Positions 1-24,000 of a stretch of 64,000 bases of DNA are shown piece after piece (position 1 is the stretch's first letter; each line of letters opens with the position of its first letter). The notes under the pieces are model-generated. The model saw only the letters and a program-made list of their open reading frames with translations, was not told where the DNA came from and made no database searches. The DNA comes from a bacterium. GTDB lineage: Bacteria > UBA9089 > CG2-30-40-21 > SBAY01. The position numbers and the translations under genes are program-made. The DNA is taken from the NCBI GenBank assembly GCA_040757115.1, contig JBFLYA010000001.1:6526-70525 (forward strand), given 5' to 3'.

Positions 1-3000
1 GTAAAGGTAGTAATGAATTTACCATTTGGTTCTGTCGTTACTTTAGTAATAGTCCTGGTAGTCCCAAAGTCAATCTGGATAAGTTCAGTCGCATAAAATC
101 CTGTGCCAATAATACTAACAATAGTCCCTACTGTCCCCCTATCTGGACTTACCACAGCAATTTCCTGGAAGATAAAGATATATCTTGTATCCTGTTTGCC
201 TGAATCAAGTCCCATAGGTGTAACCGAAGTTGTCCCATAAACCTGGGTATCAATGGTAAATGTAGTATAGAATCTTCCCTGTGCATCTGTTGAAATTGTA
301 GTAATAGTTAATGTCCTACCAAAATCAATTTGAATAAGTTCTGGTTGTGCAGGATTACTTTCTGGATTATATCCTTTCCCTTCTATAGTAATGATTGTTC
401 CCACTGTTCCTTCAGTTGGAGCAAGTAGAGAGATACCAGGTCTGATAAGGAAAGAGGTATAGGCACATTCTTCTGAAGGAATACCTCTAACAGTTACGGT
501 AATCCTACCCGATTGTTCATCAACGGTGAAATTAGCAATAAATTCACCAATGCCATTGGAGGTAGAAGTAGTAATAGTAAGTGTCGTACCAAACTGGACA
601 AATATATCCTCAGTCGCACCATAACCATTACCCCTTAGAGTAACAACAGTTCCCACTGGACCACTATCATACCAGATACTGGTTACATTACCTCTAACTG
701 CAAAGAAGTTTGCGGCGGAAGTATTCTTATCTCTCGCCACAACCGTCTTTGTAGCGGCAATCTGAGTATCGATAGTAAATGTGGTTCTAAATTGACCATT
801 CCAATCAGATGAGGTAATAGTAATGGTAGAATGTGTACCAAAATCTATACCAATTAACTCACTGACACCATACCCCGTGCCTTCTATAGTAACTATACTA
901 CCAACCGACCCTTGTGAAGGTGAAACAACCGTTACCCGACCTGTAATCGTAAATGACCCTAATGCGACTAAAGTGGTCTCAGAACCTGTAGCCTTAATTG
1001 TTGTTCGACCATAAGGCTGAGTATCTACGGTAAATGTAGTTGAGAATGTTCCCAAACTATTAGTCAAACCAATTCCTACAGTTCTACTGGTTCCAAAATC
1101 AATATAAATCGTCTCCGTCCTGCCAAATCCATCGCCTACAACGGTAACAATAGTTCCCAATGAACCCGAAGTAGGTGTAACCTTAATAATATTTCCATAA
1201 ATGAACAATGTCTTTTCATTCACCAGCCCCATTCTTAATCCAGTTGCCCGAACAGTAGTGCTTCCGGCAGGTTGTGTATCAATGGTAAATGTCGTGGTAA
1301 AAGTCCCTCTGATATTTGTTGTCACCGTAGTTATGGTTAGGAATGTTCCAAAATCAATCTGGATAAGCTCACTGGCATCAAAACCATTACCTCTCACGAT
1401 AATCTTTGTTCCCACAGAACCTCTATCTGGTGAAACTAAACTAATCTCGCCAACAATGAAGAAATTCTCCACAAAAATGTATCCTGCATTCCCTGTAGTA
1501 TTTCCACGATCAGTAATAGTCTTGGTTCCTGCAGGTTGTGTATTAACCGTAAATGTAACCGCATAGGTTCCAAAATTACTACAGTTAGTTTTGACAATAT
1601 AATTGCTATAAGGTGACTGATATGCATGATCAAAAATACCAAAGAAAAGTTTTACCTCTTCATTCTCCTTCCAGTGACCATTTCCAACCACCGTAACGAT
1701 GCAGCCAACAGAACCACGATTAGGTGTTACTAAAACAATTCTTGGGGTAACAAAGAACAGTCCTTGTTTAACACTTGCCTGCCCGGTGAAGATACCTGTA
1801 GCGACAATAGTGTTGAGATAATAAAGTTGCGTATCCACGCTAAATGTAGTCTCAAATTCACCACGATAATTAGAAGAAGTAAGAGCAATCGTCACCGTTG
1901 TCCCAAAACTTATTCTCACAAGTTCTGACTTTCCATATCCATTTCCTTTTACGGTAACAACTGTCCATGCAGGACCTTTTGTCGGTGTAATAAAGGTAAT
2001 TTCTGGAATAATCACAAATGGGTCCTCGGCAATTTGACCCGAACCTTCACCAGTAGCAATGATACTTGTCGTGCCATAAATCTGGGTATCAATACTAAAC
2101 ACCACCGTAAACGAACCAATCGTATCCGTAGTAGTTATTGTCATTGTCTTAGTTGTGCCAAAATCGATAAATATTCGCTCCTGCACACCATAGCCATTAC
2201 CTGCAACAGTAACAAACGACCCTACTGTTCCAGAAGGCGGTGAAATCAGAGTAATATTTCCTGTAATAACCATGAAATTCAAAGTCTCTTGAAGTGATGC
2301 ACCAGCACCTTTGGCAAAAATCGTTGTTGTGCCAAAAGGTTGAGTGGTAACGGTAAATGTGGTGGAGAAAGTCCCACCCAGCTGAGTTGGGGTAGCAGTA
2401 GTCGTCCCCACAAAATATTGCGTGGAAGTTCCTTTACCAAAATAAACACCTACATTCTCATTAGCACTATAACCATCACCCCAAATAATAACAATTGTTC
2501 CTACACTACCACTCGTAGGTGAGACTTGGTAAATTCGACCAACTATTCTGAAGTAATTGAACTTCTGTTGAGAAAAACTCGAAGCACATATAGTTGTAAA
2601 ACCATAAATTTGGGTGTTGACTGTAAATGCAGTTGAAAATGTCCCTGTAGGTGTAGTCCATGTTTTCACAATTGCTGATATCTCTCCAAAATGAATCATT
2701 ACTTCTTCTGATGCTTTATACCCATCACCTTTGACCGTGACAATTGTTCCAATTGTTCCTGATTCTGGACTAACTAAAATGATATTACCTACGAGAGTAA
2801 AATCAGGACTAAGTGTTATCGTTCCTGAAGAAATATACCCAAATATACTTATTGTCTTTGCACCATACACCTGGGTATCAACCGTAAAGGTCACCCGGAA
2901 AGAACCATCATTTGAAGAAGTTGTCGTTGCAATTGGTAATGTAGTTCCAAATTTAACTTCAATCGTCTCTGAACCACTAAATCCACAACCTTCTATAGTT

Positions 3001-6000
3001 ACTATTGTTCCTACACTACCATAGGTAGGTGAATATAATGTTATGCCACGATTAATCACAAAATAGACTGTATCTTTATTTTGCGTCGTCAATCCTGTTA
3101 CCATAACAGTAGTCGTTCCTGAAGGTTGAGTATCGACAGTAAAAGTTAAACTAAATGTCCCTAATGTACTTGAAGTTACTGTAGTTATAGTCTTATTTAT
3201 CCCAAAATCAACTCTGACAGATTCTCTCTCTCCAAAACCATTACCTTCTATAGTCACCGTTTCCCCGACTAACCCTGATGTTGGATAGAAGTAAATAATT
3301 TTACCATCTATATAGAAGGTATTCTTATAATAAGGATTATTCAGTGTTGTGGAACCCATATTTCTTCCAACTACAGTAATCGTTACCGTCCCACCTATCT
3401 GGGTATTAACCGTAAATGAATAAGCGAATGTTCCTCCTACTGATATTTGGAACGGATTATTTTGAATGGGCTTAAAAGTACCAAACATAACAAGGACAGA
3501 TTGACCGTTTCCCATATGTGAACAATACCCATCTCCAAAGACAGTAATTAGCGTCCCAACAATCCCATGCGATGGAGAAACAAGAGATACCCTACTCAAA
3601 ATTCTGAATGTTACCGAATATGACCCGGTTGAATTTACTCCTGATGCGGTCACAGTTTTAGAACCCCAGGTACCTTCCACTAAGGTTGCTGGTTGAGTAT
3701 CAACCGTGAAATAAGTAGAGAATGTCCCGTAGGCATTTGTGGTTGCAAAGGCTATACTTACCGTACTACCAAAACTAATCCTTACCTGCTCTGTCGCACC
3801 ATATCCATCACCGACCACCGTTACTCGAGTCCATTCTATCGGTCCTGACTTAGGCGTTAAGGTAATAATCTTGGAAAGGATAAAGAAGGTATCACACGCC
3901 TCCCGCGTTCGAGAAGGATCATCACCCTCACTCTTCCATACATTCCACGCAAGTATTGTCGTTAGACCATAAGGTTGTGTATCTATAATAAAGTTAAATG
4001 TAAAGACACCTTTACTATCTACTTGCACTTCTTTATATTCTATCTGAGGAACAGTACCAAAATCAACCTTTACATACTCAGAGGCGATAAATCCATCACC
4101 CATAACCGTAATGTATGTTCCTACAGTGCCTATATTAGGTGAAACTAAAATAATATGTGGGGTTATCTTAAATTTCAAGTAGTCATATCCAGGACTATAT
4201 GAATTAATTACCTGACCTGAATTCAAACCTCGGACTTCCATCGTCTTTGTCCCATAAGGTTGAACATTTATCGTAAATATAGTTGTCCATGAACCATACG
4301 CATTAGTGGTAACTAAATTAATCGTCGGCGTATTTCCTAAACTTATACGGATAGTTTCAGTTGCTCCAAATCCTGTCCCTTCAATCGTTACATAAGTTCC
4401 TACACTACCTATTCTTGGAGTATATAAGGTAATCTCGGGAATTATCTTAAAGGTAGTCTCTCTTACTTGCTGTGTCTTTATCCCGATAACTTTAATAGTC
4501 GTAGTGCCATAGATTTGTGTATCAACCGTAAATTCAGCACTAAACTCACCACTAACATTTGTTGTCGTAGAAACAATAGTAACCGTCGTGCCAAAATCAA
4601 TTTGAATTACTTCACTCAAACCATAACCATTACCTGTTACCATAACTCGAGTATTTACTATTCCTTGAGCAGGATTAACCTGGGTAATATTAGGTCTAAT
4701 ATGGAAGAAATTAATACTATATTCCCTATGAGTATTTCCTGTAACTGTAATAGTTGTCGTCCCATACGGCTGAGGGATATTTGGATTAAATTCAATATCA
4801 CTCCGTTCACCTATCACTGAAACCTCATATGGAGAACCCCCAACACTAATTAAAGTTCCAAAATCAACTTGCACCTGCTCTTCTATCCCATAACCGGTTA
4901 CAGCTATTCGTATCTTATAATTACCAATTGTTCCATACATAGGAGTAACAGATGGAATAGATGGTATGATACGGAAATAGTCGTGCTGGTCTTCCCCTGA
5001 AATGATACCAAAAACTCTAACTGTCTTTGTTCCTAAATACTGCGTATCCACCGTAAATGTTGCTGCGAACACTCCATCATTATTTGAGCTAACTAAGGTA
5101 ATACTTCTGGTTGTCCCAAAATCAATCTGGATAGTTTCACTTATGCCATAACCATTACCGGATATGCTTATCATCGTACTTACCGAACCTATTCTCGGTG
5201 CAAGATAGGTCAATGATTTATAAATCACAACTGTAGTTATTGTGCTGGCAAAGCTATTTAACCCAATACCAGTAACCGTAGTTGTTCCAGCAGGTTGGGT
5301 ATCAATCGTAAATGATACGGTAAATGTCCCGATTTCATTACTTGTAGTCCTCGTAATAGTCGAAGTCCTACCAAAATTAATCACTACTGGTTCCAACTTA
5401 TCATACCCTGTCCCAAATACTGTAACTATCGTACCTACACTTCCCTCTACAGGCTGAACAAATATCTTTGGCATAATCATAAATGAAACCTCTCTCTCGA
5501 ACTGACCACCCCTGGCTATGACAGTCTTTGAACCATATATTTGAGTATCAACCGTCCATACTGTCCAGAATGTTCCTAATTCATTAGTTTTAGTTCCAGC
5601 TTCGGTATATGGTTTTCTATCTCCAAACCAAATATCAATACTTTCTGTTACTCTATACCCTGTCCCATGCAGGCTAACAAGGCTACCTACCGTCCCGGCA
5701 ACTGGTGAAATAACAATATTAGGTAAAACACGATAAGATGTATCTTCTGCAAATTTATTGCTTTCATCACTTGCCGTTATCTTTACTGAACCATAAGGCA
5801 CATCTTGTGAAGTAAATGTAGTGGTAAAGGAACCTGTATTATCCGCCGAAGTCTGTGTAATCGTTAGATAATGTCCAAAATCTATCCTTATGGTATGATT
5901 GGGACCAAAACCGGTTCCTTTAACCATAATAATCGTCCCAATTGTGCCTTCACCTGGCGAAACTAAAGTAATACCTTGAACTATCTCAAAGAAATTAATC

Positions 6001-9000
6001 GCACAGACACCTGATGGTGTGCCCTTAGCTGTAATAGTATTCGTGCCGTTCGACTGTGGTTGAATCTCAAATGATGTATTAAATTCACCATCAAAATTAG
6101 AAGTAGTTGTTGCCATTGGTATAAGATTCTGTGGCCAATAAACCTCAACTAATTCTGATGACCCATAACCATTACCTTGAACACTAACTATTGTCCCTAC
6201 AGGTCCTTGAACAGGTGAAACAATGGTTATCTTTGGACCAATAGTGAAATAATTAACGGCTTCCTGTTTTGGAGCATTCACCTCATAAGCCAATACCGTT
6301 GCTGTTCCAGCAGGTTGTGTATCAATAGTAAATGTTACTGTAATAGTCCCATTACCTGAAGACGTAGTATTAGCCTTATCCATAACCGTATTATGCGGGT
6401 CTATCTCTGTCCCAAATTGAATCTTGACCGGTTGATTATTTCTATAGCCACTACCATATACTGTTACTACTAATCCAACTGTACCAGAAGATGGTGAAAT
6501 CCTATAGATATTAGCAATAATCTTAAATGATGCTGTGGCTACCTCTAAAGAAAGCGTCCCTGTCGCCATAACTAATTTAGGAGAATGCGAACTATCCACA
6601 GGCTGTGTATCTACGGTAAAGATAGTATCAAATGACCCATTATGAATTGTCGAAACAGTCGTAATCGTTCGTGTCCATCCAAAACCTATGACTACTAACT
6701 CTGATGCACTGTAACCATTTCCTTTAATGGTTACAACAGTAGTTACTGGACCAGTAGTCGGTGTAATTAAATAAATATTAGATTTAATAGTCAGTGTGCC
6801 ATAAGGATTACTGCCTGAATCTATTCCCGTTGCCCGCACTGTTGTTATTCCAACGGGTTGGGTATCGATAGTAAATGTCGTGTTAAAGTAACCTGCCGCA
6901 TCGGTACTGGTAACATTTATACTCTTTGTCGTCCCAAAATCTATCCGTATACACTCACTACCTCTAAATCCATCCCCTTGCACGATAATTATAGTTCCCA
7001 CAGTGCCGGTCTTTGGCGAAATTACCTTTACGGTTGCCTGAACGGTAAAGGTTCCACTTGCCTCTTTACTGGTATTTATTCCAACTGCTTTAATCGTAGT
7101 TATCCCTACTGATTGGAGATCAACCGTGAAAACTGCAGTGAACGAACCATAGGCAGTAGTTGTAATAAAGGTAATCGTAGGTGTTGTGCCAAAGTGAATA
7201 TGTATTGGCTCTGTTGCACCAAATCCATTCCCTCTTACCATGACAGGTATTCCTATTGTCCCATCTTTAGGCTGAATCAGGATAATATTAGGCAAGATAG
7301 TGATCGTGCCTACTGCCTCTTCACTTCCCTTTGCCTTGACGGTAGTTACGCCATAAGGTTGGGTATTAATGGTAAAGGTAGTTGTCCAGCTTCCTTCTGC
7401 CACGCTGGATGCCAATCGAATATTAGAGTTAGTCCCAAAATCTATATGAATTGTCTTGGATGCCCCATAACCATTTCCACTTAGAGTTATGATTGTCCCT
7501 ACTGTTCCTTCTTTTGGAGTAATGGAAATGATATTGGATGAAATACTAATTGTGCCTTTATCTGAAATCCCATCTCCAGAAGCAACAATCGTTGTTATAC
7601 CATAAGGCTGGGTATCTATGGTAAAGGTAGTGGTAAATGAACCCTCGGCATAAGCAGATACAAATTGAATACTCCTTGTCGTCCCAAAGTCTATTTGAAC
7701 CGTTTCAGATGCTCTATATCCATTACCTCGTAAAGTAATAATTGTCCCTATCGTTCCTTCGGTTGGCGAGATAAAGATAATCTTTGGTTCAATTCTAAAT
7801 TTAACCTCGTAGGTAATCGTTCCTCCACACGCCCTAACTGTGGTCCAGCCATAAGGTTGGGTATTAATCGTAAAGGTAGTTGTAAAACTGCCACCTGCAC
7901 TGGTAGAAACAGTGGTTATAGTTTGTGTCGTCCCAAAATTAACATAAACCGTATCATTCCCACAATAACCATCTCCAGATACGGTAACTATTATTCCTAC
8001 TGTGCCGGAGGTTGGAGTAATATACACTAAGTTCTGTTTAATAAATGTATTATCAATGGCAAATATACCCAGGGCATCATTATAGGCTATAATAGTCGTC
8101 CGTCCATAAGGTTGGGTATTAATGGTGAATGTGGTTGAGAAACTGCCGTAGGCATCTGTTGAGGTAAAGGTAATACTTGGTGTCGTGCCAAATTTTATAC
8201 GAATAGTTTGACTGGCTCCAAATCCATTACCGGTTATGGTTACGATTAACCCTACCGTTCCTTCTGTTGGTGTAACTCCTGTAATAGCAGGTTCTATTCT
8301 GAAAGTAATATAAGCCGGATAATTCGAGTTCAATCCTGTTGCTTTAATCGTTGTCGTCCCATATTTCTGGGTATCGATAGTAAAGGTAACCGTAATTGAC
8401 CCTGATTCTACGGCAGTAACTGTATTAATGGTCAGGGTAGTTCCAAAATCTATCTGCACTAATTCATTACTCAGATAACCATTTCCATAGAGAGTAACTA
8501 TCGTGCCTACAGTTCCCGCGGTGGGAGTAATCTGGACTAACTTCGGTGCTATCTTAAACAGTAACGAATATGCCGATGTGCCGGTATTTATTCCCCAGAC
8601 GGTAATAGTAGTCGTCCCAATTCGTTGAACATCTACGGTGAAGGTAGTTGAGAACGACCCACATCCTTCTGAAGTAATCATAGTAATAGTCTGATTAGTT
8701 CCAAATTGAATTTGCACTGACTCATTACCACCAAATCCATTACCTGCTACCGTAACCACACTACCAACTGTTCCTTCTGTTGGTGTAACTAAAATAATAT
8801 TCGGTCCAATAAAATAGGTATTGCTTGCAGATACATCTCCCTCTTCCATATCAACGGCAACAACCGTTGTCGTTCCATAAGGTTGAGTATCAACTGTAAA
8901 TGTCGTTGAGAAACTACCTTGTGCATAAGTTGAGGTCATAGTAATAGTCTTATTTGTCCCAAAGAGAATATGAATGGTATGACTGGCGCCAAAACCATTA

Positions 9001-12000
9001 CCGGTTACCGTCACTGTAGAACCAACGGTGCCATTAGGTGGTATAACTGTAGTAACCTTTGGTTTTATGGTAAATGTCTCGATTGCAGAATTGAGTGGAC
9101 AGGTCGCCTTGATTGTAGTAACCCCACTTTGTTGGGTATTAACCGTAAAGGTAATTGTCCATGTCCCTGAAGCGTTAGCAGAAACCGTTGTAATTGACCT
9201 GGTAGTTCCAAAATCAATCCGCACGGTTGAAGCAGAACCAAAACCATCACCTTCTAATGTTACTATTGTCCCCACTGTGCCTTCTTTGGGTGTAGAGGTA
9301 TAGATTTTTGCCATTACATAGAAGATATTTGATGCTCGCTTTTCGTATTCAAGCATTTGTGCATATTTATATGAATTCCAGGCAGTAAATGTAGTTGTTC
9401 CTGCTGGCTGTTGAATATTAAAGTCATAGACCAAACTAAATGTCCCTGCCTGACTGGCATAAGTACCACCATAAGGAGGTGCTGGTGGTGTTACACTAGA
9501 ATCCGTACCATATATTGTCCCAAAATCAACATAAATCCCTTGACTTGCCGCATAGCCTGTGCCAAAGAGGGTAATTTGACTTCCCACCGTCCCTTTAGTC
9601 GGTGAAACCCAGACTAACTCTGGAATTATCTTGAATAAATCATCTACACCACCTGTATCATCATCTTCAAAACAAGAAGTTGTATCTGTGCCATAGATAG
9701 TCTTTGTTCCATAGGATTGGGTATCAACTGTCCATGTGCCATTAAATTCACCTCTATCCGTTGCCGTCGTAATCGCAATTGTTCGTGTCCAGCCAAATCC
9801 AATCAGCACCTCACCACCACCGGTATAACCATTACCCGAAACGGTAACTATAGTCCCTACCGTTCCCTTAATTGGAGTAATGCTAACAATATGTGGTACT
9901 ATTCGTAAGGTATCTGTAGCTTGTTCACGACCTGTAGGTTCTTTCGGACCGATAGCCATCGCTGTCGTTGTTCCAAAGACTTGAATGTCAATGGTAAATG
10001 TTTTCGTAAATGTCCCTGAGGCATTAGTCGTAGCAATAGTAATGGTGGAATTATTACCAAAGGCAATACGGATATTGCTATTTTCAGTATAACCTCTACC
10101 TTCAATCGTAATTGTTGTTCCTACGGTAGCAGACTTAGGTGTAAGTGTAGTAATTATCGGTAAGATAAAGAAGTAATTGCGTGCCCATTGTGCTGTGCTC
10201 AGACCAATAACCTTAATAGTTGTCGTGGCAAAAGGCTGAGGTATAGAAACTACACTCTGATCGAATTTTGCAGTAAATGTCCCTTCTGGAGAGACTCTCG
10301 GGTGAGTATCTGGCTCAATAATCACAAATCCCGTATTAGCAACTAAACCATACTCTGTCCCATAATCAATTGTTATATTTTCTCCATTTACACCATCTCT
10401 ACCAAAACCTGTTCCCTTAATAGTAATTATAGTTCCTATTGTCCCTGTAGTTGGACTAACCACAGTAATTTCTGGAATAAGAACAAAATATCTATACTGG
10501 TCAGGTCCTTTATTCCAGTATTCACCCCACTTATCTACTTCCTGAGTGTTAAGTCCTGTAGCCACAATCGTCTTGGTGCCAAAGTATTGGGTATTAACCG
10601 TAAAGATAGTAGCAAATGTCCCGGCATTGTTAGTTGAAACTGTGGTTATAGTTAAGGTTGTGCCTAAATCTATCTGCACTACCTCATTAGCACCATAACC
10701 ATCACCCTGAATAAGAATTGTATCTCCTACCTGTGCCTTCCATTTATCTGGCACATCAAAATGTGGCACTTCTACTTGCCGACTGATTAGTGTAATATGT
10801 GAATTTATCTTAAATAAGTCATCACTGCGATGATTATCCAGATCAAAGACATCAGCCGCCACAATTGTATGTGTCCCTGCCGGCTGTGTATTTACCGTAA
10901 AGGTAATACTGAATGTTCCACAGGCATTTGTCTTTGTTTCGGTAATAGTGGTAGTCTGACCAAATGTTACCCGCACGGTAGCCGTAGCCGCATAACCATC
11001 ACCAGCTATAGTTACAATTGTTCCTACAGACTGTGCCCTTGGTGTAACCAACCAGATATGCGAAATTATCTTAAAGGAATCTACATCCCTATATTCATCT
11101 TTATCAAAGTCATTGTATCCCATCCCTCCTGGTATCATACGAAATGCCTTAATAGTTGTCGTCCCATAAGATTGTGAATTAACATTAAATGTAATTGAAA
11201 ATGTCCCATTATAATTTGCAGTCTGTTGGATTATTGCCCAGCTAGTCCCAAACTCTATCGTTACTGTCCCCTGACGATGATAACCATTTCCATAAACTGT
11301 AATTGGCAATCCTACCGTCCCCACAGTAGCGGTAACATAAACAATATTATGCGTAATCTTGAAATAAGTATGATATTGTGTAGTAGTCCGTTCCCCGACT
11401 GCATTGACCGTATGTGTTCCATAGCATTGTTCATCAACCGTCCATTGTGTTATAAAACTACCATTGCCTGCTGCAGTTACCGTTGTAATACTCATATTTG
11501 TCCCAAATTCTATACGAATAAGTTCACTACCACCATAACCTGTTCCACTTACCTCTACTACAGTTCCCACTGTTCCGGTAAGAGGTGTAATACTAATTCC
11601 AGGGATAATTATAAAGTAATCATAATCCTTTGTAATCTGACCTGTGGCTGTAATAGTAGTTGTTCCCACAGGTTGAGTATCAACCACAAATGTGGCACTA
11701 AATGTTCCATTAGGTCCGGCAGTAGACATAGTAATACTTATATGTGTTCCAAAATCAATCTGGACAATTTCACTTGCCAGATAACCACTTCCTATGATAG
11801 TAACTTGAGTCCCTACTTGCCCTGAAGGAGGAATTACACTTATAATTTCTGCCTTTATAAAGAAGTTATTAAATGCCTCTTGTTTAGACATACCTTCAAG
11901 TGTTCCTCTACTTCTTACCGTAGTAGTTCCTGCTGGTTGAGTATTAATAGTGAATATATAAGTAAACTGTCCAATACCATTACATGTAGTTATTATATTA

Positions 12001-15000
12001 AATTCAACTGTAGTTCCAAACTTAATTTTTAGCTCATCCCCTGCATCATAACCATCACCATAAATTGTTACCCGACTTCCTACTGTCCCTTGTGTTGGCG
12101 AAACGGTATGAATCCTGGCGATAATGGTGAAACTACCCATCAAAACTCGCCCTGATGTGAGTCCTGTTACCACAACACTCTTTGTCCCAAAAGTCTGCAC
12201 ATCAACCGTAAATGTCAATGAGAAACTACCGTATGCATCTGAAGTGGTAATAGTTATAGTCGAATTAACCCCAAACCTGACATGAATGGTCTCTGTTGCT
12301 TCAAATCCATCACCCGTAATAGTAACCACTGTCGTTACTGTCCCTATGGTTGGGGTAAATAGTGTAAATTGCGATAAAATATTAAATGTCCCGCTTGCCT
12401 GCTGACCTGTATTTATGCCTCTTGCAGTAATCGTTGTCCAGCCATATCGTTGAGGATTGATAGTAAATGTAGTGCTAAATGAACCTGAATCAGTCGTCCT
12501 GGTAACAATGATACTCACCGTCGTTCCAAAATCAACCTGTATCTCTTCACTCGCTCCAAACCCACTACCGGCTACTGTAACGATTGACCCAACAGTATTG
12601 GCTTGTGGCTCAACCTTGAATATCTCTGGCTTGATAACTATCAACCGATAATCTTGCACCAAATCAACCTCATTTATATCTGTGGCAATAATGGTTGTCG
12701 TGCCGTAAGGTTGCGTATTGATTGTGAAGGTAATTGTCCATGAACCCTGCGGTTTAGAGATAACCGTTGTAATCGTCTTTGTCGTTCCAAAGTCAATCTG
12801 AATAGTATGAGTTGCACCAAATCCATTACCGCTTACCATAATAATCGTTCCTACTGTGCCTTCTATTGGACTGTAATAAATAATTTGTGGCAAAATAGTA
12901 ATGGTAGCAATTGCCTCCTCACTTCCTCTTGCCTTGATAGTCGTAATTCCATATCTCTGTGTATCGATAGTAAATGTAGTTGTAAAGCTGCCTTCGGCAT
13001 AAGTTGAGGTAACTTGAATACTTGGCGTTGTCCCAAAGTCAAGATGAACTATCTTGTATGCCCCATAACCATTGCCTTTAACCGTGATAATTGCACCGAC
13101 AGTCCCTGATGTTGGTGTAAGAGAGATAACATTTGACTCGATACTTAAAGTCCCTTCTGCCTTTATTACTTTACTATCGCTATGAGCAACAACAGTAGTA
13201 ATTCCGTAGTGTTGGGTATCAATGGTAAAGGTAGTAGTGAAGCTACCTTCGGCATAAGTTGAGGTAGTTTGAATAGTTAGTGTTTTTCCAAACTCTATCC
13301 GAATGATGGTTGAGGCATCGTAACCATTACCTCTAATAGTAATTATCGTCCCTACAGTTCCAGAGGTAGGTGAAATAAGAATGATATTCGGTAGAACAGT
13401 TACACTGCCATAGCGATGTAATCCCTGGTCATCTCCATGAGCACCTACTGTCGTTGTGCCATAAGGCTGCGTATCAATAGTAAATGTTGTGGAGAAACTT
13501 CCTTGTGCATAGGTTGAGGTAAGTTGAATAGTCGGTGTAGTTCCAAATTCTATCCTTATTGTCCTTGAGTTGCCATAGCCATTACCACAAATAGTAATGA
13601 TTGTTCCAACCGTGCCTTGCGTTGGTGACAGGTAGATGATATTGGGTAATATAGTAAGAGTCTTTTCTGCATTAATACCATCGCCATGTCCCTTTACTGT
13701 AGTTGTCCCATAGGGTTGAGTATCAATAGTAAATGTGGTAGTGAAGCTACCTTCGTCATAAGTTGAAGTAAGTTTAATAGTTGGTGTTCTCCCAAACTCT
13801 ATACGAATCCTTCTATAAGCCTCAAAACCATCACCCCTCACTATAACTACCGTTCCAACTGTCCCTGTATTTGCGGTAACATAAACGATATTTGGCAGGA
13901 TAAAGAATGTCAGGTTATCGGCATCGGCACCGGTAGTCATACCTGTTGCTTTAATCGTTGTCACACCATAAGGTTGTGTATTGATGGTAAAGGTAGTAGT
14001 GAAGCTACCTTCTAACTCTGCTGTCACAGTGGTAATCGTCATTGTCGTGCCAAAATCTACCTGGATTAACTCACCTGCTTTATATCCACCACCGCGTAAT
14101 GTAACTACTACACCGACAGTTCCTTGAGTTGCAGTTACTGACACTAATTGCGGCTTAATCACATACTCAAACTTCCAACTGCTCTTGCCAGTCATAACCC
14201 CAATTGCCTCAATAGTCGTCGTGCCTATCGGTTGAGTATCAACCGTAAAAGTAGTGGTGAAGCTACCGCAGTATTCTGCAGAAACTAAGGTAATTGTCTC
14301 TGTCGTTCCAAACTTAATTCTTACTAACTCACTTGAACCATAACCATTACCTCTAACTGTAACTACACTTCCTACTATGCCTTCTTTTGGCGTAATTAGT
14401 ATAATCTCTGGAATAATTCTGAGTCTATCATCATCTGAGGCAATATCTCCTGCAATAGCCTGGACATCCACTGCCACAATGGTCGTCGTGCCATAAGGCT
14501 GTGTATCAATGGTGAAGGTGGTTGAGAAACTACCGTGTGCATAAGTAGAAGTCATAGTAATCGTTTGATTAGTTCCAAAGAGAATATGAATGGTATGACT
14601 GGCGCCAAAACCATTACCTGTAACCGTAACTATTGTCCCTACTGTAGCTACCGCAGGAGTAACTGAAGTAATAACAGGTTTAATTCTAAATGATTCCGTA
14701 GCAAAGTTAAGTGGACAGGTAGCAGTAATTAAGGTATTACCACTCTGTTGCGTATTAACCGTAAAGGTAATGGTAAATGTTCCTGAGGCATTAGCAGAAA
14801 CCGTAGTAATAGACCTGGTAGTTCCAAAATCAATCCGCACGGTTGTAGCAGACCCAAAACCATCACCTTCTAATGTTACTATCGTCCCCACTGTGCCTTG
14901 TTTCGGTGTAGATGTATAGATTTTTGCCATCACATAGAAGATATTCGATGCCTTCTTATCATCACCTTGTGGTATCGCGTGAGTATATGAATTCCAGGCA

Positions 15001-18000
15001 GTAAATGTGGTAGTGCCTGCCGGTTGCTGAATTCTGAAATCATACACACTACTAAATGTTCCCGCCTCACTGGCTGTTCCATAAGCAGGCAGGAGATGAT
15101 CTACCTCCCAGTCTTCATCCTTATCTGTTCCAAAATCAACATAAATTCCTTGACTTGCCGCATAGCCTGTGCCAAATAATGTAATTTGTGTTCCTACAGT
15201 TCCCTTAGTCGGTGATACCCAGACTAACTCAGGAATTATCTTGAACAGGTCATCTACTCCACCCAGGTCATTATCTTCTACACCAGAAACAGTATCAGTA
15301 GCATAAATAGTCTTTGTCCCATAGAATTGAGTATCAACTGTCCATGTCCCATTAAATTCACCCGTTGGATTTGCCGTTGTAGTTGTAATCGTCCGTGTCC
15401 AGCCAAATCCAATCAGCACCTCGCCACCACCGGTATAACCATTACCATAAAGTGCAACTCTCGTTCCCACCGTCCCTTTAGTCGGTGTAATACTAACAAT
15501 ATGTGGCACTATTCGTAAGGTATTTGTAGCTTGTTCACGACCTGTAGGTTCTTTCGGACCAATACCCGTCGCTGTCGTTGTTCCAAAGACCTGAACATCA
15601 ATGGTAAATGTCTTTGTCCATGTGCCTGAAGAATCTGTGCTCGCCATAGCAATCGTTTGATTATTACCAAAGGCAATGCGAATGATAGCATTTTCTGAGT
15701 AACCTTTACCTTCGATCGTAATTGTTGTTCCTACAGTGGCGGATTTCGGTGTAAGTGTTGTAATCTTCGGCAGTATAAAGAAATAATTTTGTGCAAACTG
15801 TTTGGTACTGCTACCATAAACGACAATAGTCGTTGTCCCAAATGGTTGGGGAATATCTACTATGTTTTGTAAAAATGCTACAGTAAATGTTCCTTCTGAT
15901 GAAACTCGAACTGGTTCATAAGGAGGTTCGATACCCTCTACTCCATATTCAATATGAATCAATGTCCCATAATTAATCTCTAAATATTCACCATTTCCTA
16001 ATTCATCTCGATGACCATAACCTGTTCCACACACAGTAATAATTCTTCCTACGGTTCCGGTAGTTGGAGTAACTACAGTAATTTCCGGGATAATGACAAA
16101 GTATCTGTATTGGTCAATACATTTTTGCCAATATTCACCCCATTTATCGACTTCCGAAGTTGTAACTCCGGTAGCAACAATTGTTTTTGTTCCAAAGTAT
16201 TGCGTATTTACCGTAAATGTGGTGCTAAATGTCCCTGCATAATTAGTGGTTACCGTTGTTATTGTCAATGTTGTTCCTAAATCTATTTGAACCATTTCTG
16301 TCGCACCATAACCATCTCCAGTAATGAGAATAACATCTCCAACTTGTGCCTTCCATTTATCTGTTACCACAAAATGTGGTATCTCTGAAGTCCTACTAAC
16401 TAAGGTGATATGTGAGGTTATTCTGAATTCATCGTTATCACAATGATTATCCAGATCAACTAAATCAGCCGCAGTTATGGTATGACTACCTGCTGGTTGT
16501 TCATTCACGGTAAAGGTAACACTAAATGTCCCGCAGACATTTGTTGAGACTTGAGTGATAGTAGTTGTCCAGCCAAAATTTATCCGAACTAAAGCCAAAC
16601 TCGCATAACCATCACCAGCAACTGTAACAATTGTCCCCACTGACTGTGTCTTTGGTGTTACCATCCAGATATGTGAAATTATCTTAAAGCAATCAATATC
16701 ACTATAATCTGGTGTATCCCATAAATCTTGTAATCCTGCTGGTCGGTCACGCTGAGCAATAATTGTCGTTGACCCATAAGGTTGGTCATTAACCGTAAAG
16801 GAAATGCTAAATGTCCCATTAATATTTGCCAACCGTTGTATCATTATTGGCACAGTGCCAAATTTTATCGTAACGGTGCCATTTCGATGATAGCCATTAC
16901 CATAAACCGTAATTGGTAATCCAACCGTGCCTACCGTAGCAGTTACATAAACGATATTATGTGTAATCCTAAATTCCTTATTGAATGAAGTGTTTGATGG
17001 TGCACCAACAGCAGTTACAGTATGTGTGCCATAACATTGTTCATCAACCGTCCATTGTGTGCTGAAATAACCTGATGCCTGTGAAGTTATAGTCGTAATT
17101 GTTCGATTTGTGCCAAATTCTATGCGGATAAGTTCACTGCTACCATATCCAGTTCCACTTATCTGGACTATTGTTCCTACTGTTCCAGTTTCTGGGGTAA
17201 TGATAATTCCAGGTGTAATGACAAAATATTGATATGCACCAGTAATCTGACCCGTTGCTTTCACCGTTGTCGTTCCCACCGGTTGAGTATCAACCGTAAA
17301 TGTAGTACTAAATGTCCCATTTGGTCCTGAGGTAACCGTAGTAATCGTCAGATGCGTGCCAAAATCAATCGTGATAAGTTCTGCTGCCTTATATCCAGTT
17401 CCTTGAACCGTGACGGGTGTTGACACGGGTCCAGAAGATGGCACAACTGATGTAACTTCGGCCATAATAAAGAAATAATTATATGCTAACTCTTTAGACT
17501 TATTTGTCCCTCTACTCCTAACAGTTGTTGTTCCTGCTGGTTGAGTATTAACTACAAATGAATGGAGAAATTGTCCGTTAGAATTAGATGATTGAACCTC
17601 TGTAGATTCTTCATCCGTTCCAAATTTAAGGACTATATCTTCTATGGCAGAATATCCATCTCCTCTTATTGTAACAACTGTCCCTACCGTCTGACGATAT
17701 GGAGTAACCTCATATATTCGCGCAATAATCTTAAATTTACCATAATCTACAACACCACTGGTTAATCCTTTTGCACTTATCGTCTTAGTTCCATAAACCT
17801 GGGTATCAACCGTAAATGTCATTGAGAAACTACCATAAGCATCTGTTGTTGTCATCGTAATAGTGCCAGTATTACCAAATCCAATACAAATCCCCTCGGT
17901 TGCACCATAACCATTTCCAGTTACCGTCACGATGCTATATATCTTTTCACCAGTAGTTGCCACAATAAGAGCTTCTACTACCCCAGATGTAGGTGTAATA

Positions 18001-21000
18001 AGTGTAATCCTTGGTAAGATAGTAAATGTGGATGTAGCAATAACATTTTCCGCTGCTGATAATGTTGATGTTCCACTTGCTTTAATTAATGTCGGTCCCT
18101 GTTGTTGAGTATCCACAGTAAAACTGATACTGAATGCCCCCAATTTATCAGTTCTGGTAATAATTCTGGGTCTTGTTGTCCCAAAATCAATTTGTATCCC
18201 TTCACTTATCCCAAAACCATTACCGGCTACTGTCACCTCACTACCAACAGTTCCTGATTGAGGACTAACTAAAATAATATTCGGTAGTATCTTCACGGTA
18301 AATGTTGCATCTTGTGCGCCGCTATTCACACCAATAACTCTAATTGTTGTTGTGCCATAAGATTGCGTATCAATTGTAAATGAGTATTCAAATTCACCTT
18401 TATAATCACTATTATACCAGATAGTTCTGGTTGGATTATTCCCAAACTCTACTCGTATTGGTTCCACTCGACCGAAACCGCTACCTTTTACTGTCACGGC
18501 ACTACCTACACTTCCCGCATAAGGTGCCACTGAATCAATATGTGACAAGATAGTAATAAATGTCGAAGTCCCATCTTGTGAACTCATACCGATAGCAAAA
18601 ATAGTTGTTGTCCCATAAATTTGGGCATTAATCGTAAATGTCGTGCTAAATGACCCATTATTTTCTGCCTGGGCAATAGTTGCTGTATTTGTAGTCCCAA
18701 ATAATATATGGACTTGCTCATTAGAATAATAGCCATTACCTCGAACAGTAATTATTGTGCCAACTATCCCCTGGGTTGGAGTAACAAAGATAATCTCTGA
18801 CCTTATCTTGTAAATATATCTTTCATAAGACTGCCCGGTGGATGACCCTACGGCTATAATACTTGTAGTTCCATAAGATTGAGTATTAACGGTAAATATG
18901 GCGGTAAAGCTACCCGAGGCAGTGCTGGTAACCGTAGTAATAGTCCGTTCCGTCCCAAAGATAATACTAATCATTTCAGTAGCACCAAACCCATTACCCG
19001 CAACTGTAACCCAACTACCAACAGTTCCTTCCGTAGGAACTATAGAGACAATATTAGACAGGATAACAAAAGTAGAAGTTGCTGTAGCTGGAGATGTTAC
19101 TCCTGGAGTAGAATCAACATCCGTCGCTATAATCGTCGTTGTCCCATAAGGTTGAGTATTAATTGTAAATGTAACGGTAAATGACCCACCGCTTTTCATA
19201 TTCATCTGGGTAATATTAATTGTTGTTCCAAAATGAATACTGGCACCATTTGCCGGATAATTAAATCCATTACCATAAACAGTAACTACTTTTCCAACCG
19301 TTCCAGAAGTTGGGGTAACATAAACTATCTTAGGTAAGATTTCGTAACCCAGAGAAACTTGTTTAGATACACTACTTTCATCTTTTGCCCAAACCTCTCT
19401 TAGTGGATAATGCATCTGTTCTGGAACTGTAAATATGGTTGAGAAACTTCCATGTGAATAAGAAGATGTTAGAGTTATGGTTGCTAAATCAACTCCAGTT
19501 ACACCAAATAATATCGCTATCGTCTTAGAGGCATTAAACCCATTTCCTGCGATTGTTACTTTACTTCCTACTATTCCGGATTGTGGTGTAAAGACAATGA
19601 TATTGGGTTCTATCTTAAATTCATGCCTGGCAATAATTCCTTTAGAATCAATAGCAGTTATCGTTGTTGAGCCATAAGGCTGGGTATCGATGGTAAAGAT
19701 AACTGTGAATAAGCCATTTCCATCAGTTGATATACAAGTAATACTCAATGTCGTTCCAAAATCTACTCTTACATAATCGGTCCCTGTAAAACCATCACCG
19801 CTCATTGTCACTATAGTTCCTACTGTGCCCTGATTAGGACTAACATCAATTATCCTTGATAATATCCTGAAGAAGACGGTAGCAGTAGTTCCTGTATTCA
19901 CACCTTTAGCTATAACTGTTGTTGTTCCTACAGGTTGCCCATTAACAGTAAATGTCGTACTGAATGAACCATAGTCCCCATCAATATTAACCAGTGGAAC
20001 AATAGTTACTGTCGTCCCAAATGAAATCAGGATTTTCTCATTTGGAGCACCACCAAAACCATTACCCGCAATTGTCACCGTCGTACCTACAGTTCCATCA
20101 CTCGGGTTAAATACCGTAATATTAGGTCTTATCTTAAACTTATCCTCTGCAGATATATTCTGTGCATCCTTAGCTTTAATCTTACAAGCATCACCACTTG
20201 CATAGTCTCCGTATGCATCAGCCCGCTGAGTATTGACCGTAAATGTAGTTGTCCAGCTACCATACGCTGTTGAGGTAACGGTTGTAATTGACGAATGCAT
20301 ACCAAATTGTATGACAATAGGACTTGTGGCATTAAATCCATTCCCACTCAAAGTAACTATCGTTCCGACTGACCCTGTTTGTGGGCTGACATAGATAATC
20401 TTTGGCAGTATCTTGTAGGTATTGCTCGCAGAGCCTAAACTACCGTAGCCAGTAATCGTTGTTGTGCCGTAAGGCTGGGTATTAATGGTAAATGAAACGC
20501 TAAATGTGCCATTGACATTAGCAGATACAGTCTGAATCGTCGGTGTCGTGCCAAAGCCAATCCACACCAACCCTTCTTTCGGATACCCATTGGCAGTAAT
20601 CGTTACCACACTCCCAACCGTGCCTTCACTCAACTCTACCTTCCAAATAGCAGGTAGTATGGTGAATGTCCCATAATCTGTCTCTTGTGATGATCCTGAA
20701 TATCTTGCTTCTACTGTTGTTGTTCCACCTGGCTGAGCATCTACCGTAAATCTTACCGAGAATGTCCCATCTGTGCTTAGCTCTTTTTCAGCTATCCAAC
20801 CTGGTCGTATTCCAAAGATTATCTTTATGAAATCACCTGGATTGTTATATGGATATCCATTCCCTTCTACGGTAACAAAACTACCTACTGTCCCGGCTGG
20901 CGGACTAATCAATGTTATCTCTTGCGTCACCGTAAATGTAGCCTTTGCACTTGCTCCGGAGGTAGTTCCTGTCCCAACTATCCATTTCTCTCCATATTTC

Positions 21001-24000
21001 TGCGTATCTACGGTAAACACTGCCTGTAATACACCCAGTCTATTCACCTGACTAACTAATATCGTTGGTGTCTTACCAAATCCTATCACTACTTGCTCTG
21101 ATGCCCCATATCCATTACCACACACCGTTACCATACTCCCTACGGTCCCGTATAGCGGTGAAACGGAAACAATATTGGGTATAATCCCAAACTCAGTCGA
21201 GGTCACTCTCTGTTCCAAATCTAAAACACTTATTCCTATTATAGTCGTTGTCCCATAAGGTTGAACATCTACCGTAAAGGTAGTGGTAAATGACCCCGTT
21301 ACTTCTACTATCAAAGTCTTCCTTGTTGGTGTCTCGCCAAAGGCTATCCGTATATTCTCGCTCCTCCCATACCCTGTTCCTTGAACTGTCACTACACTAC
21401 CTACCCTCCCTCTGGTCGGTGTTACTTTAAATATCTCTGGTATTATCTTAAAGAACTTATACGCACTCTGCTCTGCCTCCTGACTCAACCCAAATACCCT
21501 TATCGTCGTAGAACCATAAGGTTGTGTATTTACTACAAAATAAGTAGTAGTAATCGTAAATGTCCCATCTGCACTACTGTTACCACCTCCAGAACAACTT
21601 TGCAAACTACCAAAATCATAATATATAGGTATTCCCTGACCATAACCATTAACATCTACCCTCACTGGTGTCCCGACTGTCCCTATGGATGGTGTAACTA
21701 ATATTATCTCCGGCATTACCTTGAAATACCTTATATCCTCTTGCTCTATACTCATCCCTCTGGCGATAACTGTCTTTGTCCCGTAAATCTGTGTATCTAT
21801 AGTAAATGTCGTCCCAAATGTCCCTACTCCATTTGTAGATATAGTTGTAATGGTATTCTTATTCCCAAAACTTATCCGAATCAATTCACTCGCTCCATAC
21901 CCATCTCCGGTAATCGTCACAAAACTACCTACTGTCCCTTTTGTCGGCGTGCTTGCTGTTATATTTACCTCTATCCTGAATGACCGGCTATATTGATGGT
22001 TATCTCTGTCATATAGCCCATATCCGGTAACTGTCCTTGTCCCATAAAATTGAGTATCTACGGTAAAGGTAATATTGAATGTCCCTCGTTCACTACTCCT
22101 ACCCGTAGTTATCGTCTCTGTCGTCCCAAATTTTATCTGTATCTCCTCTGTTACAGCATATCCTGTCCCAATTACCGTGACTATCTTCCCTACTGACCCG
22201 GCAGTTGGACTAATCAATATCTCTGATGTAATCACAAATATTTCATCATCTGTGGGAGATGGAGTGAAATCAACTCCTTTTACTATCACACTTGTTGTCC
22301 CATAGGCTTGTGAATTTACAGTAAAGTAAACGGTAAATGTCCCATCTGTTGATGCCTCTAAATAATCATTTATTGGTTTACCTTCATATTCATAATCTGG
22401 ATCTAATCCAAACTGTATCCAGATATCATCATTTGCCCTATATCCATCTCCTGATACGGTTACCCGTGTTCCTACTGTCCCTGTATCTGGTGTAATATCA
22501 AAGATATGTGGTAATATGTTGAACTCATCTGTATCCACTGCCCCTGAATTAATTCCATATGCCCGAATAGTATGTGTCCCATATCTCTGACTATTTACTG
22601 TAAATACAGCCGTAAATGAACCCATCGCATCTGAAGTAGCCGTAGTAATAGTTGATGTCGTCCCAAAGTCTATCTGAATTAATTCTGTGGCATTATACCC
22701 ATTACCTCTAACGGTTACTACAGTCCCTACTGTCCCTTCCTTTGGTGTAACCTCGGTTATCCCTGTCTTAATACTAAATGTCCCGGTATCTTGTGTAGTT
22801 GAATTAATCCCATAAGCACGGATGGTGGTTATCCCTACTGGTTGGGTATTAACGGTAAATACCACACTAAATGTCCCGTTAATATTAGCACTAATGGTAT
22901 TAATCGTCAAGGTCGTGCCAAAATCTATTTGCACTAATTCTGACTGCCCAAACCCATCACCGCTTACGGTTACCTGTGAATTTACTACCCCTTCTCTCGG
23001 ATATATGCTGGTAATATGTCCGATTATCTTAAATTGTTTATATGCTTCTTCTAATTCATTACCTTTGCTGGGTAGTTGATATTTACCATAGGCTCGCACA
23101 CTCGTAGAACCATAAGGTTGTGTATTAACTACAAATGAATGGGTAAATGTTCCACCAGGTCCTTGTATGTGCATCAAACTTACTATCTGGCTACTACTAC
23201 CAAAATCTATCCAGACATACTGCTCACCACCTCCACTATATCCATCTCCTGATACCGATACTAATGTCCCTACACTGCCAATTGTCGGTGTAATCAATAT
23301 CCGAGGAATAACTTTGAATTTAGTCTCTACCTGCCGCCCAGAACTCATCCCACTTATTATCACTGACTTCGTCCCATAATCCTGTATATCTACGGTAAAT
23401 TTAGTTGAAAATGAACCATAGACATCGGTAGTAGTTATCGTCAGTGTCTTTGTCGTCCCAAATTCTATATGTATCGCCTCGGTCTGCCCAAATCCATTCC
23501 CGGCTATCGTTATTTCAGTTGTTACTACCCCTATAGTTGGTGTAAAGGTGATTAATTGTGAAAGTATATTAAATGTCCCTACTGATTCTTGTCCTGTATT
23601 TAATCCAGCTGCCTTAACTGTCGTTATCCCATACCTCTGGGTATCTATCGTAAATGTGGTTGAAAAACTACCTCGTTCAGATGTCCTTGTCGTAATAATC
23701 GTCTTTGTCGTCCCAAAGTCTATCCTTATTTCCTCGGTTGCTCCATATCCTGTCCCTAATACCGTAACTATCGTCCCTATTACACCCTCTGTTGGTGAAA
23801 TCCACACGATGACCGATTTAATGGTAAATGTCGCATATAACTGCTCGGCTACATTCACATCGATTATTGTCATCGTTGTTGTCCCATAAACTTGCGTATC
23901 TACCGTAAATGTAGTTGAGAATGACCCATACGCCGTGCTACTTATCGTTGTTATCGTTGCCTCTAATCCAAAACTTATTCGTATCAGACTGCTCGCACTA

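Follow-up and report, generated by a model that had tools for sequence, protein, structure and literature searches.

How can one repeat of a giant, monotonous array share near-identical flanks with a paralogous repeat and carry, between those flanks, an 11-residue insert of equal length but different sequence? The question is raised by positions 9300-9720 of the window (the whole 64-kb stretch of DNA that was analysed), where the original prediction had placed an atypical, expanded unit containing a long non-Ig linker, and had read the variable insert as a sign of selection on length and frame or of a functional variable loop. Re-translation of 9300-9719 on the minus strand gives QSYGTKTIYGTDTTSCFEDDDTGGVDDLFKIIPELVWVSPTKG...NIFYVMAKIY without a stop or frameshift, so that the reading of this region as intact coding sequence was confirmed. 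The features on which the argument depends are listed in the table.

Features of the window, with positions on the forward strand
Feature	Position	Strand	Remarks
Giant ORF	3..63998	(-)	21,332 stop-free codons, open at both window ends (six-frame scan)
Downstream copy of the 21-domain duplication, holding unit 208	6807..12746	(-)	aa about 17085-19064
Upstream copy of the 21-domain duplication, holding unit 187	12399..18401	(-)	aa about 15200-17200
Unit 208, expanded TIG-like domain	9318..9629	(-)	aa 18124-18227; HMM match, AlphaFold2
Enlarged C-to-E segment of unit 208, GTIYGTDSSVTPPAPPYGGTYASQ	9450..9521	(-)	segment-length census, AlphaFold2
Enlarged F-G loop of unit 208, NSYKYAQMLEYEKRA	9333..9377	(-)	divergent 11-codon patch 9336-9368
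Acidic F-G loop of preceding unit 207, DTTSCFEDDDTGGV	9645..9686	(-)	between F and G strands in model
Unit 187, paralogue of unit 208	14934..15239	(-)	aa 16254-16355; reciprocal best match
C-to-E segment of unit 187, GTDKDEDWEVDHLLPAYGTASE	15066..15131	(-)	22 aa
F-G loop of unit 187, NSYTHAIPQGDDKKA	14949..14993	(-)	divergent patch 14952-14984

The window consists of a single minus-strand frame of 21,332 amino acids, and this frame is filled without gaps by 244 tandem IPT/TIG-like units recognised with a custom HMM, at a spacing of 82-112 aa (median 85). In an 801-aa sample around unit 208, Pfam PF01833 (TIG) was matched in seven stretches at E=7.3e-26, with 90.4 bits against a cut-off of 20.9; no domain other than TIG was found in the 21,332 codons of the window. 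The gene is longer than 64 kb and encodes at least 244 TIG domains in at least 21,332 aa, beyond the 10,000 aa taken as the lower limit for a single ORF dominated by one repeated Pfam domain. A census of segment lengths across all units showed that the A-B, B-C and E-F segments are of near-constant length and that the variation is greatest in the C-to-E segment (11-31 aa; 13 aa in 181 of 244 units) and in the stretch from strand F to the A strand that follows (20-37 aa; canonically 23 aa). Expanded or atypical units are grouped in one zone, comprising units 181-187 and 202-208.

The flagged domain is unit 208. As claimed it is atypical and expanded, at 104 aa against the median of 85, although it is not unique in this, being the fourth longest of 243. 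Its surplus of about 19 aa is due to two enlarged, solvent-exposed segments: 11 residues are added to the stretch linking strands C and E, and 7 to that from strand F to strand A of the following unit. The C-to-E segment measures 24 aa where 13 are canonical (fifth longest among the 244 units), and the F-to-next-A segment 30 aa instead of 23 (rank 14 of 236). The HMM built from the window's own TIG units scores the domain at 58.9 (E=1.8e-20; median of units 86). Searched alone, unit 208 gives no Pfam TIG match at E<=1, whereas the surrounding array does match, and the Pfam and NCBIfam searches of the unit returned nothing informative beyond TIG on its neighbours, a CoaZ repeat match remaining below threshold (17.5 bits against a cut-off of 30). 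The array's own start and core motifs (a start resembling PxxGxxGxxVTIxGxGF, FG after strand C and GxF in strand E) are nevertheless all present, reading SPTKGTVGSQITLFGTGY...VDFG...AGTFS, and the near-invariant columns P10, G13, G16, G23, F36, G37 and G51 are all retained.

The paralogous copy that had been proposed was recovered as unit 187, a domain of 102 aa lying 5.6 kb upstream, with the in-frame reading ...QQPAGTTTFTAWNSYTHAIPQGDDKKASNIFYVMAKIY. Units 208 and 187 are reciprocal best matches, with 147 bits and 74-75% identity; the next best unit scores about 60 bits, and no third copy of the subtype was found within the window. The peptides originally reported for the two copies were correct and their coordinates slightly off: GTWTVDT lies above 9719, and the peptide of the paralogue at about 14916-15029 rather than 14921-15030. 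The second copy is the product of an ancient tandem duplication that took in 21 domains. The two copies of the block are offset by about 1,870 aa and share 53-76% amino acid identity per tile, with the peak in the centre (tile BLAST), and 21 is also the most frequent offset between a unit and its best partner (55 units). Blocks of both 21 and 28 domains have been duplicated, and these super-repeats provide an internal clock: their synonymous divergence is 0.4-0.6 and their pN/pS 0.1-0.3. The array is therefore old, translated and selected, rather than a recent expansion or an artefact of assembly.

Comparison of the two copies showed where they differ. The two versions of the 11-residue patch in the F-G loop, KYAQMLEYEKR and THAIPQGDDKK, have 2 of 11 residues and 13 of 33 nucleotides in common, and the flanks are near-identical, in agreement with the pattern first described. 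In the C-to-E patch 30 of 51 aligned nucleotides differ between units 208 and 187, in addition to a 2-codon indel, and the segments differ in length (24 and 22 aa). Outside these patches the framework retains 95% amino acid identity despite about 45% synonymous divergence (pS 0.42, pN 0.047; 4-fold divergence 0.48), and over units 207-209 together pS is 0.42 and pN 0.088. In the loop patches pN is 0.50-0.57 and pS is saturated. This distribution is not peculiar to the pair: the C-to-E and F-G classes have the lowest conservation in each of the three super-repeat pairs (0.36-0.67 amino acid identity), at a nucleotide divergence near, not above, that of 4-fold sites. The equal length of the F-G insert does not require that length and frame be selected. 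All 21,332 codons stay in one frame, indels are lacking from 14 of the 18 F-G loops and from 16 of the 18 C-to-E segments in this duplicated block, and the other enlarged loop of the unit has changed length.

Other origins for the divergent patches were considered and rejected. A compensated double frameshift as the source of a same-length, different insert would leave a shifted register; the nucleotide alignment has none, and its mismatches are scattered. Conversion of the patch from a third repeat was sought with blastn-short and blastp-short across the whole window, and the four loop sequences matched only themselves. A DGR variable region would show adenine-specific change, but all four bases are among those mismatched, in each of the copies (adenine at 9/20 and 9/30 mismatches in copy A, and at 6/20 and 11/30 in copy B); the entire window is TIG array, leaving no room for a reverse transcriptase gene.

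Both copies were modelled with their neighbours as three-domain fragments using AlphaFold2, with pLDDT of 91.6 and 92.1 and pTM of 0.82 and 0.83. In the models each copy is confidently predicted to be an Ig-like (E-set) beta-sandwich; that of unit 208 has strands A, B, C, E, F and G, with a loop in place of D, and the top fold matches of the model are tandem Ig-like arrays. The C-to-E segment of unit 208 contains no regular strand (pLDDT 54-73), the canonical D strand being replaced by an irregular excursion; in unit 187 the same segment has a pLDDT of about 55. In the model of unit 208 the F-G loop forms a short helix that joins strands F and G (pLDDT 76-84); in that of unit 187 it is mainly coil, apart from a single helical turn at model residues 184-186.

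Taken together, these results favour, with a probability of roughly 0.7, a reading in which unit 208 serves as a structural spacer whose surface loops are unconstrained, within a giant fibre that is probably extracellular. It would be a divergent IPT/TIG (Ig-like, E-set) domain, one of at least 244 arranged head to tail, whose extra residues (about 19) come from two solvent-exposed segments, the C-to-E connection and the F-G hairpin loop. Since the duplication its beta-sandwich framework has been under strong purifying selection, and the two enlarged loops, free of sequence constraint, would have drifted to near-saturation; near-saturated loops on a framework that is held may be all that is needed to place identical flanks around a wholly different insert. 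The equal length of the F-G insert would then mean no more than that no indel has occurred there, which is also true of most loops in the block. The fold, the duplication, the pattern of selection and the placing of the loops are direct results; the extracellular stalk or adhesin-like fibre, the role of spacer and that of the loops as surface decoration without a specific ligand are our inference.

An alternative is that the loops resemble CDRs and bind ligands under diversifying selection, units 187 and 208 being ligand-binding modules of different specificities on a conserved scaffold in the stalk. We regard this as unlikely, although part of the evidence points towards it. The two patches of unit 208 rank first and second for patch-minus-flank divergence among about 1,920 sliding windows in the 2,000-codon duplicated block, its framework is the best conserved of the block (0.95 amino acid identity), and the two units form a distinct subtype confined to this pair in the window; the framework conservation together with this contrast hints that unit 208 is more than a generic spacer. 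Further, the patches diverge at 0.59-0.61 per nucleotide against 0.38 at local 4-fold sites, and the pooled value of 50/84 gives a binomial P=6.6e-5 against the local 0.383. The patches were, however, chosen post hoc, and the excess is marginal when set against the synonymous divergence of the domain itself (pS 0.42, 4-fold 0.48; P=0.03 against 0.49). Nor is pN above pS inside the patches, and many ordinary loops of the block are equally diverged, at 0.21-0.46 amino acid identity. The loops in question are modelled at low confidence, and the two copies do not share a structure there. Against the spacer reading, on the other hand, stands the strong conservation of some other long loops in the block, such as the F-G loop of units 183/204; loops are therefore not uniformly free. 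It is likewise unlikely that the two units are paired recognition modules in the stalk, in which an unusually conserved Ig-like scaffold presents CDR-like loops driven apart by diversifying selection to give several specificities along one protein. Were diversifying selection on these loops real, they would point to candidate sites of ligand binding in a fibre that is otherwise monotonous.

The comparison of the loops is between two sequences. An exhaustive phmmer search of 1.84 billion representative proteins gave no orthologue (best identity at most 48%). A search for homologous proteins gave only two matches (37-39% identity) and a scan of genome contigs two loci (35-36%); no matching locus was found in the scan of metagenome contigs.

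Improbable, too, is a mosaic produced by gene conversion, in which short tracts that stop at or skip the heterologous loops homogenised the framework, with no need for selection on the protein. Identity within the block does peak near units 206-209, where 4-fold divergence is 0.29-0.48 against 0.5-0.7 further out, and runs of at least 8 identical codons are more numerous than permutation gives (P=0.017 to 0.0002). In its length, however, the longest such run is unexceptional (P=0.58, three units), and the rest of the window contains no donor for any of the four loops. At the framework of unit 208 the 4-fold divergence of 0.48 and the pS resemble those of the rest of the block, and it is the protein that has not diverged; from the 4-fold value, this framework is not recently homogenised DNA.

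It is very improbable that unit 208 interrupts the fibre as a hinge, as a long flexible linker or as a site of proteolytic processing, which was the first suggestion. In its favour are a segment rich in Pro, Gly and Ser, which is also of low confidence in the model, the acidic neighbouring loop, and the grouping of the atypical units. In both models, however, the variable 11-mer sits in the F-G hairpin of a compact sandwich, and strand G (RASNIFYV, with the core NIFYV) leads within two residues to the A strand of the next unit, KIYTST. The pTM values over three domains indicate a confident relative placement of the domains, and the low-confidence segment is a surface excursion within a domain rather than a connection between domains. 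The acidic FEDDDTGGVDD, taken at first for a linker, turns out to be the F-G loop of the preceding unit, between its F strand (model residues 65-73) and G strand (89-92), with a pLDDT of about 71; it is within the top three for acidity among 212 F-G loops and is 64% identical to the paralogue's DTVSGVEDNDLGGV. An inter-domain insert of some 17 residues is absent, the excess being that of the two intradomain segments, and no cleavage motif is common to both copies. The linker or hinge reading is thus corrected, as the models give it no support. A degenerate or pseudogenised repeat, or an array of non-coding repetitive DNA, might be argued from the low HMM score and from the failure of Pfam TIG to detect unit 208 alone, but this is refuted by the absence of stops and frameshifts and the purifying-selection signal (pN/pS about 0.1 between paralogues with substantial synonymous divergence), as well as by the confident fold prediction.

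By itself the flagged unit is of minor importance; it follows the familiar pattern of Ig-like repeats, conserved strands with drifting loops. The gene that contains it appears to come from a little-known lineage whose nearest kin are fragments from Candidatus Desantisbacteria. It belongs to a small subfamily: 284 representatives reach E<=1e-3 in the set of 1.84 billion proteins. The nearest relatives are incomplete proteins from MAGs annotated as Candidatus Desantisbacteria, and in short-read MAGs the subfamily occurs only as contig-filling fragments. Candidatus Desantisbacteria is listed with Omnitrophota in the PVC superphylum (PMC12057145). Because the ends of the gene fall beyond the window, it is from distant relatives alone that an extracellular role can be argued: their N-termini resemble signal peptides, and a T9SS sorting domain is present in one of them. 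The protein is probably an extracellular stalk or adhesin-like fibre.

Among known domains, unit 208 most resembles IPT/TIG (PF01833; for example the plexin IPT domains and domain D of cyclodextrin glucanotransferase): its neighbours match PF01833 and the model is a sandwich of the seven-strand Ig-like type. Plexin IPT3-6 are among the fold matches of the model, and the Ig-like domain D of CGTase 1cyg is the only PDB sequence match, a marginal one (E=0.0067, three-domain profile). Unit 208 differs from IPT/TIG in having a 24-aa irregular segment for the D strand, an enlarged F-G loop and no Pfam TIG match of its own.

The closest fold matches are extender domains of giant adhesins, namely Salmonella SiiE (2yn5/2yn3, E=1.8e-9) and the extender repeats 6xi3 and 5irb. 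SiiE, Marinomonas MpIBP and the LapA-type adhesins, like this array, are long and monotonous, with domains of about 85-100 aa and no linkers, and the presumed role of their extenders is to project the functional end away from the cell. The identity is only 12-15%, and the Pfam family is TIG here and BIg there. The window alone holds at least 244 units, compared with 53 BIg domains in SiiE and about 120 repeat units in MpIBP. Adhesins of the RTX/T1SS type are marked by RTX nonapeptide repeats and a T1SS secretion signal at the C-terminus, a retention module at the N-terminus, and acidic clusters that bind Ca2+ where domains join. The array has acidic F-G loops, such as EDDDTGGVDD of unit 207.

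The gene can also be compared with the tandem-repeat scaffold proteins of Omnitrophota and neighbouring phyla, which likewise span tens of kb and are dominated by one repeated domain (West-Roberts et al. 2023, bioRxiv 10.1101/2023.11.21.568195; bioRxiv 10.64898/2026.06.07.730766). In those genes, as in this one, the nucleotide repeats have decayed and the domain architecture persists. The repeat classes given for the scaffold proteins in the two preprints are HEAT, TSP3, dockerin, WD and RCC1, and the terms TIG, Ig-like and immunoglobulin are absent from the main text of both. Finally, the titin-like Ig/Fn3 arrays of eukaryotic muscle are unrelated in sequence and kingdom, and the present array differs from them in having two copies per block and no unique non-Ig insertions; the two are nonetheless alike in their higher-order periodicity, with the best partner at a fixed unit distance, and in the recurrence of position-specific atypical domains in each copy of the block.

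The stretch first picked out is a divergent TIG domain (unit 208) with two enlarged surface loops, copied via an old tandem duplication of 21 domains; its loops and those of its paralogue (unit 187, 5.6 kb upstream) have most likely diverged by drift at a roughly neutral rate. The original prediction of an expanded unit with a paralogue and a divergent insert is borne out, and this unit has the sharpest contrast between loop and framework in the duplicated block. Re-translation of the minus strand at 9300-9719 reproduced the predicted peptide without a stop. The paralogue also exists; the coordinates first quoted for it were a few bases off, and its in-frame sequence was recovered.

A six-frame scan found one reading frame of 21,332 codons without a stop and, as this is open at both window ends, the gene must exceed 64 kb. 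Residues T, G, I and V are abundant in the encoded protein. An HMM trained on units taken from the window resolves 244 consecutive units without gaps, spaced at 82-112 aa (median 85), and the 64-kb window is made up only of these tandem IPT/TIG units, whose identity was given by Pfam for an 801-aa sample (PF01833, E=7.3e-26). Nine antisense ORFs of 101-199 aa, the sole complete ORFs of at least 100 aa in 1-30000, are probably spurious.

Tile-wise BLAST revealed several segmental duplications within the array. The super-repeats comprise two tandem duplications of ~21 domains and one of ~28, at 50-76% amino acid identity. The dominant offsets between best partners are 21 units (n=55 units) and 28 units (n=27 units). 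The copies of the block that holds units 187 and 208 are 53-76% identical per tile, with the central tiles highest. Units 208 and 187 are reciprocal best matches at 147 bits, the next unit scoring ~60 bits, and form a separate subtype with just two copies within the window. Atypical units are grouped in one zone of the block (units 181-187 and 202-208). This zone is the best conserved part between the block copies and includes the F-G loops of greatest length and acidity; within it, the canonical PxxGxxG start of strand A is missing from units 183 and 204, and their long F-G loop, EVDKWGEYWxKxxDQYRYF, is ~85% conserved, in contrast to the loops of unit 208.

Positions of the features discussed, in window coordinates
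Feature	Residues (aa)	Position (nt)	Strand	Remark
Giant stop-free frame		3-63998	-	
Tandem duplication of ~21 domains with units 187 and 208	~15200-17200 vs 17085-19064	6807-18401	-	offset ~1,870 aa
Super-repeat pair	5800-8000 vs 7606-9833	~34500-46600	-	
Super-repeat pair	9400-12400 vs 11809-14824	~19500-35800	-	
Atypical units 181-187		~14934-16950		
Atypical units 202-208		~9318-11357		
Peak of block-copy identity, ~units 206-209	~16100-16480 vs 17970-18350	~8950-10090, 14560-15700		
Unit 208	18124-18227	9318-9629	-	104 aa
Unit 187		14934-15239	-	102 aa
Unit 208, F-G patch		9336-9368		diverged from unit 187
Unit 208, C-to-E patch		within 9450-9521		diverged from unit 187
Acidic loop of unit 207		9645-9686		EDDDTGGVDD
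Acidic loop of unit 186		15255-15296		EDNDLGGVDD
Antisense ORFs (two of nine)		11226-11825, 29151-29600	+	

Unit 208 is exceeded in length by units of 111, 106 and 105 aa. It scores 58.9 with the window-derived HMM against a median of 86 (about the fifth percentile), and by itself was undetected by Pfam TIG. Segment lengths were taken between conserved landmarks in all units of the array. The C-to-E segment, canonically 13 aa (181/244 units), has 24 in unit 208, the fifth longest, and 22 in unit 187; from the F strand to the next A strand both have 30 aa, where 23 is canonical (unit 208 ranking 14/236). Since the A-B, B-C and E-F segments are of near-constant length array-wide, the extra length lies at the array's two length-tolerant sites, as +11 and +7 aa respectively, and the predicted 17-residue insert between domains is absent.

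Units 207-209 were modelled with AlphaFold2 from an alignment of 118 further segments of this protein, each of three units (mean pLDDT 91.6, pTM 0.82), as was the paralogous segment around unit 187 (pLDDT 92.1, pTM 0.83); both models are three successive Ig-like sandwiches. After strands A, B and C, unit 208 runs for 27 residues without regular strand (pLDDT 54-73) and lacks the canonical D strand; strands E and F come after this irregular stretch. In the model the YKYAQMLEYEK insert forms a short helix (pLDDT 76-84), whereas its equivalent in unit 187 is mainly coil. The G strand, RASNIFYV, is followed two residues on by strand A (KIYTST) of unit 209, and FEDDDTGGVDD, taken previously for an acidic linker, forms the F-G loop in unit 207. 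On these strand positions every supposed linker is an intradomain surface loop; the models therefore argue against a long non-Ig linker, and show no flexible connection between domains that might serve as a hinge or processing site. The acidic loops of units 207 and 186, which precede the junctions with units 208 and 187, loosely resemble Ca2+-binding DxDxDG-type loops. The SiiE and MpIBP arrays are rigidified by junctional Ca2+ sites.

Divergence at 4-fold sites between the block copies (0.29-0.48 in the best-conserved part, 0.5-0.7 elsewhere) shows that the duplication is old, and pN/pS is 0.1-0.4 across the whole block. The framework of unit 208 (pS 0.42, pN 0.047) has a 4-fold divergence of 0.48, so its flanks are identical as protein through purifying selection and not recent DNA copying. 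The F-G patch (20/33 nt mismatches) has saturated pS and a pN of 0.50; the C-to-E patch (30/51, plus a 2-codon indel) has a pS of 0.66 and a pN of 0.57. Conservation is lowest for the C-to-E and F-G classes in 3/3 super-repeat pairs, where their nucleotide divergence nears, and never passes, that of 4-fold sites. Equal loop length, read earlier as selection on length, is the rule in the block: 14/18 F-G loops and 16/18 C-to-E segments are indel-free, which lends that reading no support.

A functional hypervariable loop is a possible but unlikely alternative. Pooled loop divergence (50/84) lies above a neutral proxy of 0.383 (P=6.6e-5), but against 0.49 gives just P=0.03, with patches picked post hoc. 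In a sliding-window scan of the block the two patches have the greatest loop-minus-flank contrast among ~1,920 windows, whereas their absolute divergence is merely in the top 2-3%. Loop identities within the block span 0.21-1.0 by domain, and the framework of unit 208 is the block's most conserved (0.95), which is the chief reason that the unit stands out. Patchy gene conversion between the copies is weakly hinted at: identical-codon runs of at least 8 are commoner than in permutations (P=0.017 to 0.0002), although the longest run is unexceptional. Block-copy identity also forms a gradient with its peak around units 206-209, where 4-fold divergence is 0.29-0.48 compared with 0.5-0.7 at the block edges; together with the excess of runs, this may point to patchy gene conversion or to a younger duplication nested in the block. 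No donor for the loop sequences was found in the window. DGR-like mutagenesis was ruled out by mismatches spread over all four bases, and pseudogenisation by the intact frame and a pN/pS of ~0.1.

No orthologue was found in the protein, genome-contig or metagenome-contig collections searched. An exhaustive search of 1.84 billion representatives gave 284 matches at E<=1e-3, with identity of at most 48%, and the named top matches are mainly partial, contig-filling proteins from Candidatus Desantisbacteria MAGs. In an unrelated MAG, a 9.7-kb contig (L001; JASEHA010000059.1, 1-9720, bacterium isolate Yes70-11) is one stop-free frame of 3,240 aa built of the same TIG unit type; short-read assemblies probably break up comparable giant genes. 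Three longer, distant relatives have N-termini that, judged by eye, are signal-peptide-like, and combine array units with an NHL beta-propeller (P0003), with peptidase M23 and FG-GAP (P0025), or with a beta-helix and a T9SS C-terminal sorting domain (P0016). Although Pfam TIG is unlisted for these proteins, the custom HMM detects as many as 26 units in them, and just 0.4% of their units reach 100 aa. These N-termini and accompanying domains support, by inference, a stalk- or adhesin-like role of the array outside the cell.

Omnitrophota and related candidate phyla are known to carry giant repeat-scaffold genes (bioRxiv 10.1101/2023.11.21.568195; bioRxiv 10.64898/2026.06.07.730766); TIG or Ig-like arrays are unmentioned in the main text of both papers. 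Candidatus Desantisbacteria is listed alongside Omnitrophota in the PVC superphylum (PMC12057145). The TIG domain of unit 208 is of a known kind and of low to moderate interest, and the >64-kb gene around it, with its TIG array, is the more notable object. By fold, the Foldseek matches in the PDB were tandem Ig-like arrays, best the BIg domains of SiiE (E=1.8e-9), then an S-layer protein, large-adhesin extender repeats, invasin and plexin IPT domains. The super-repeat organisation of the array is reminiscent of that of titin, and its 244 units in the window exceed the Ig-like units of both SiiE (~53) and MpIBP (~120).
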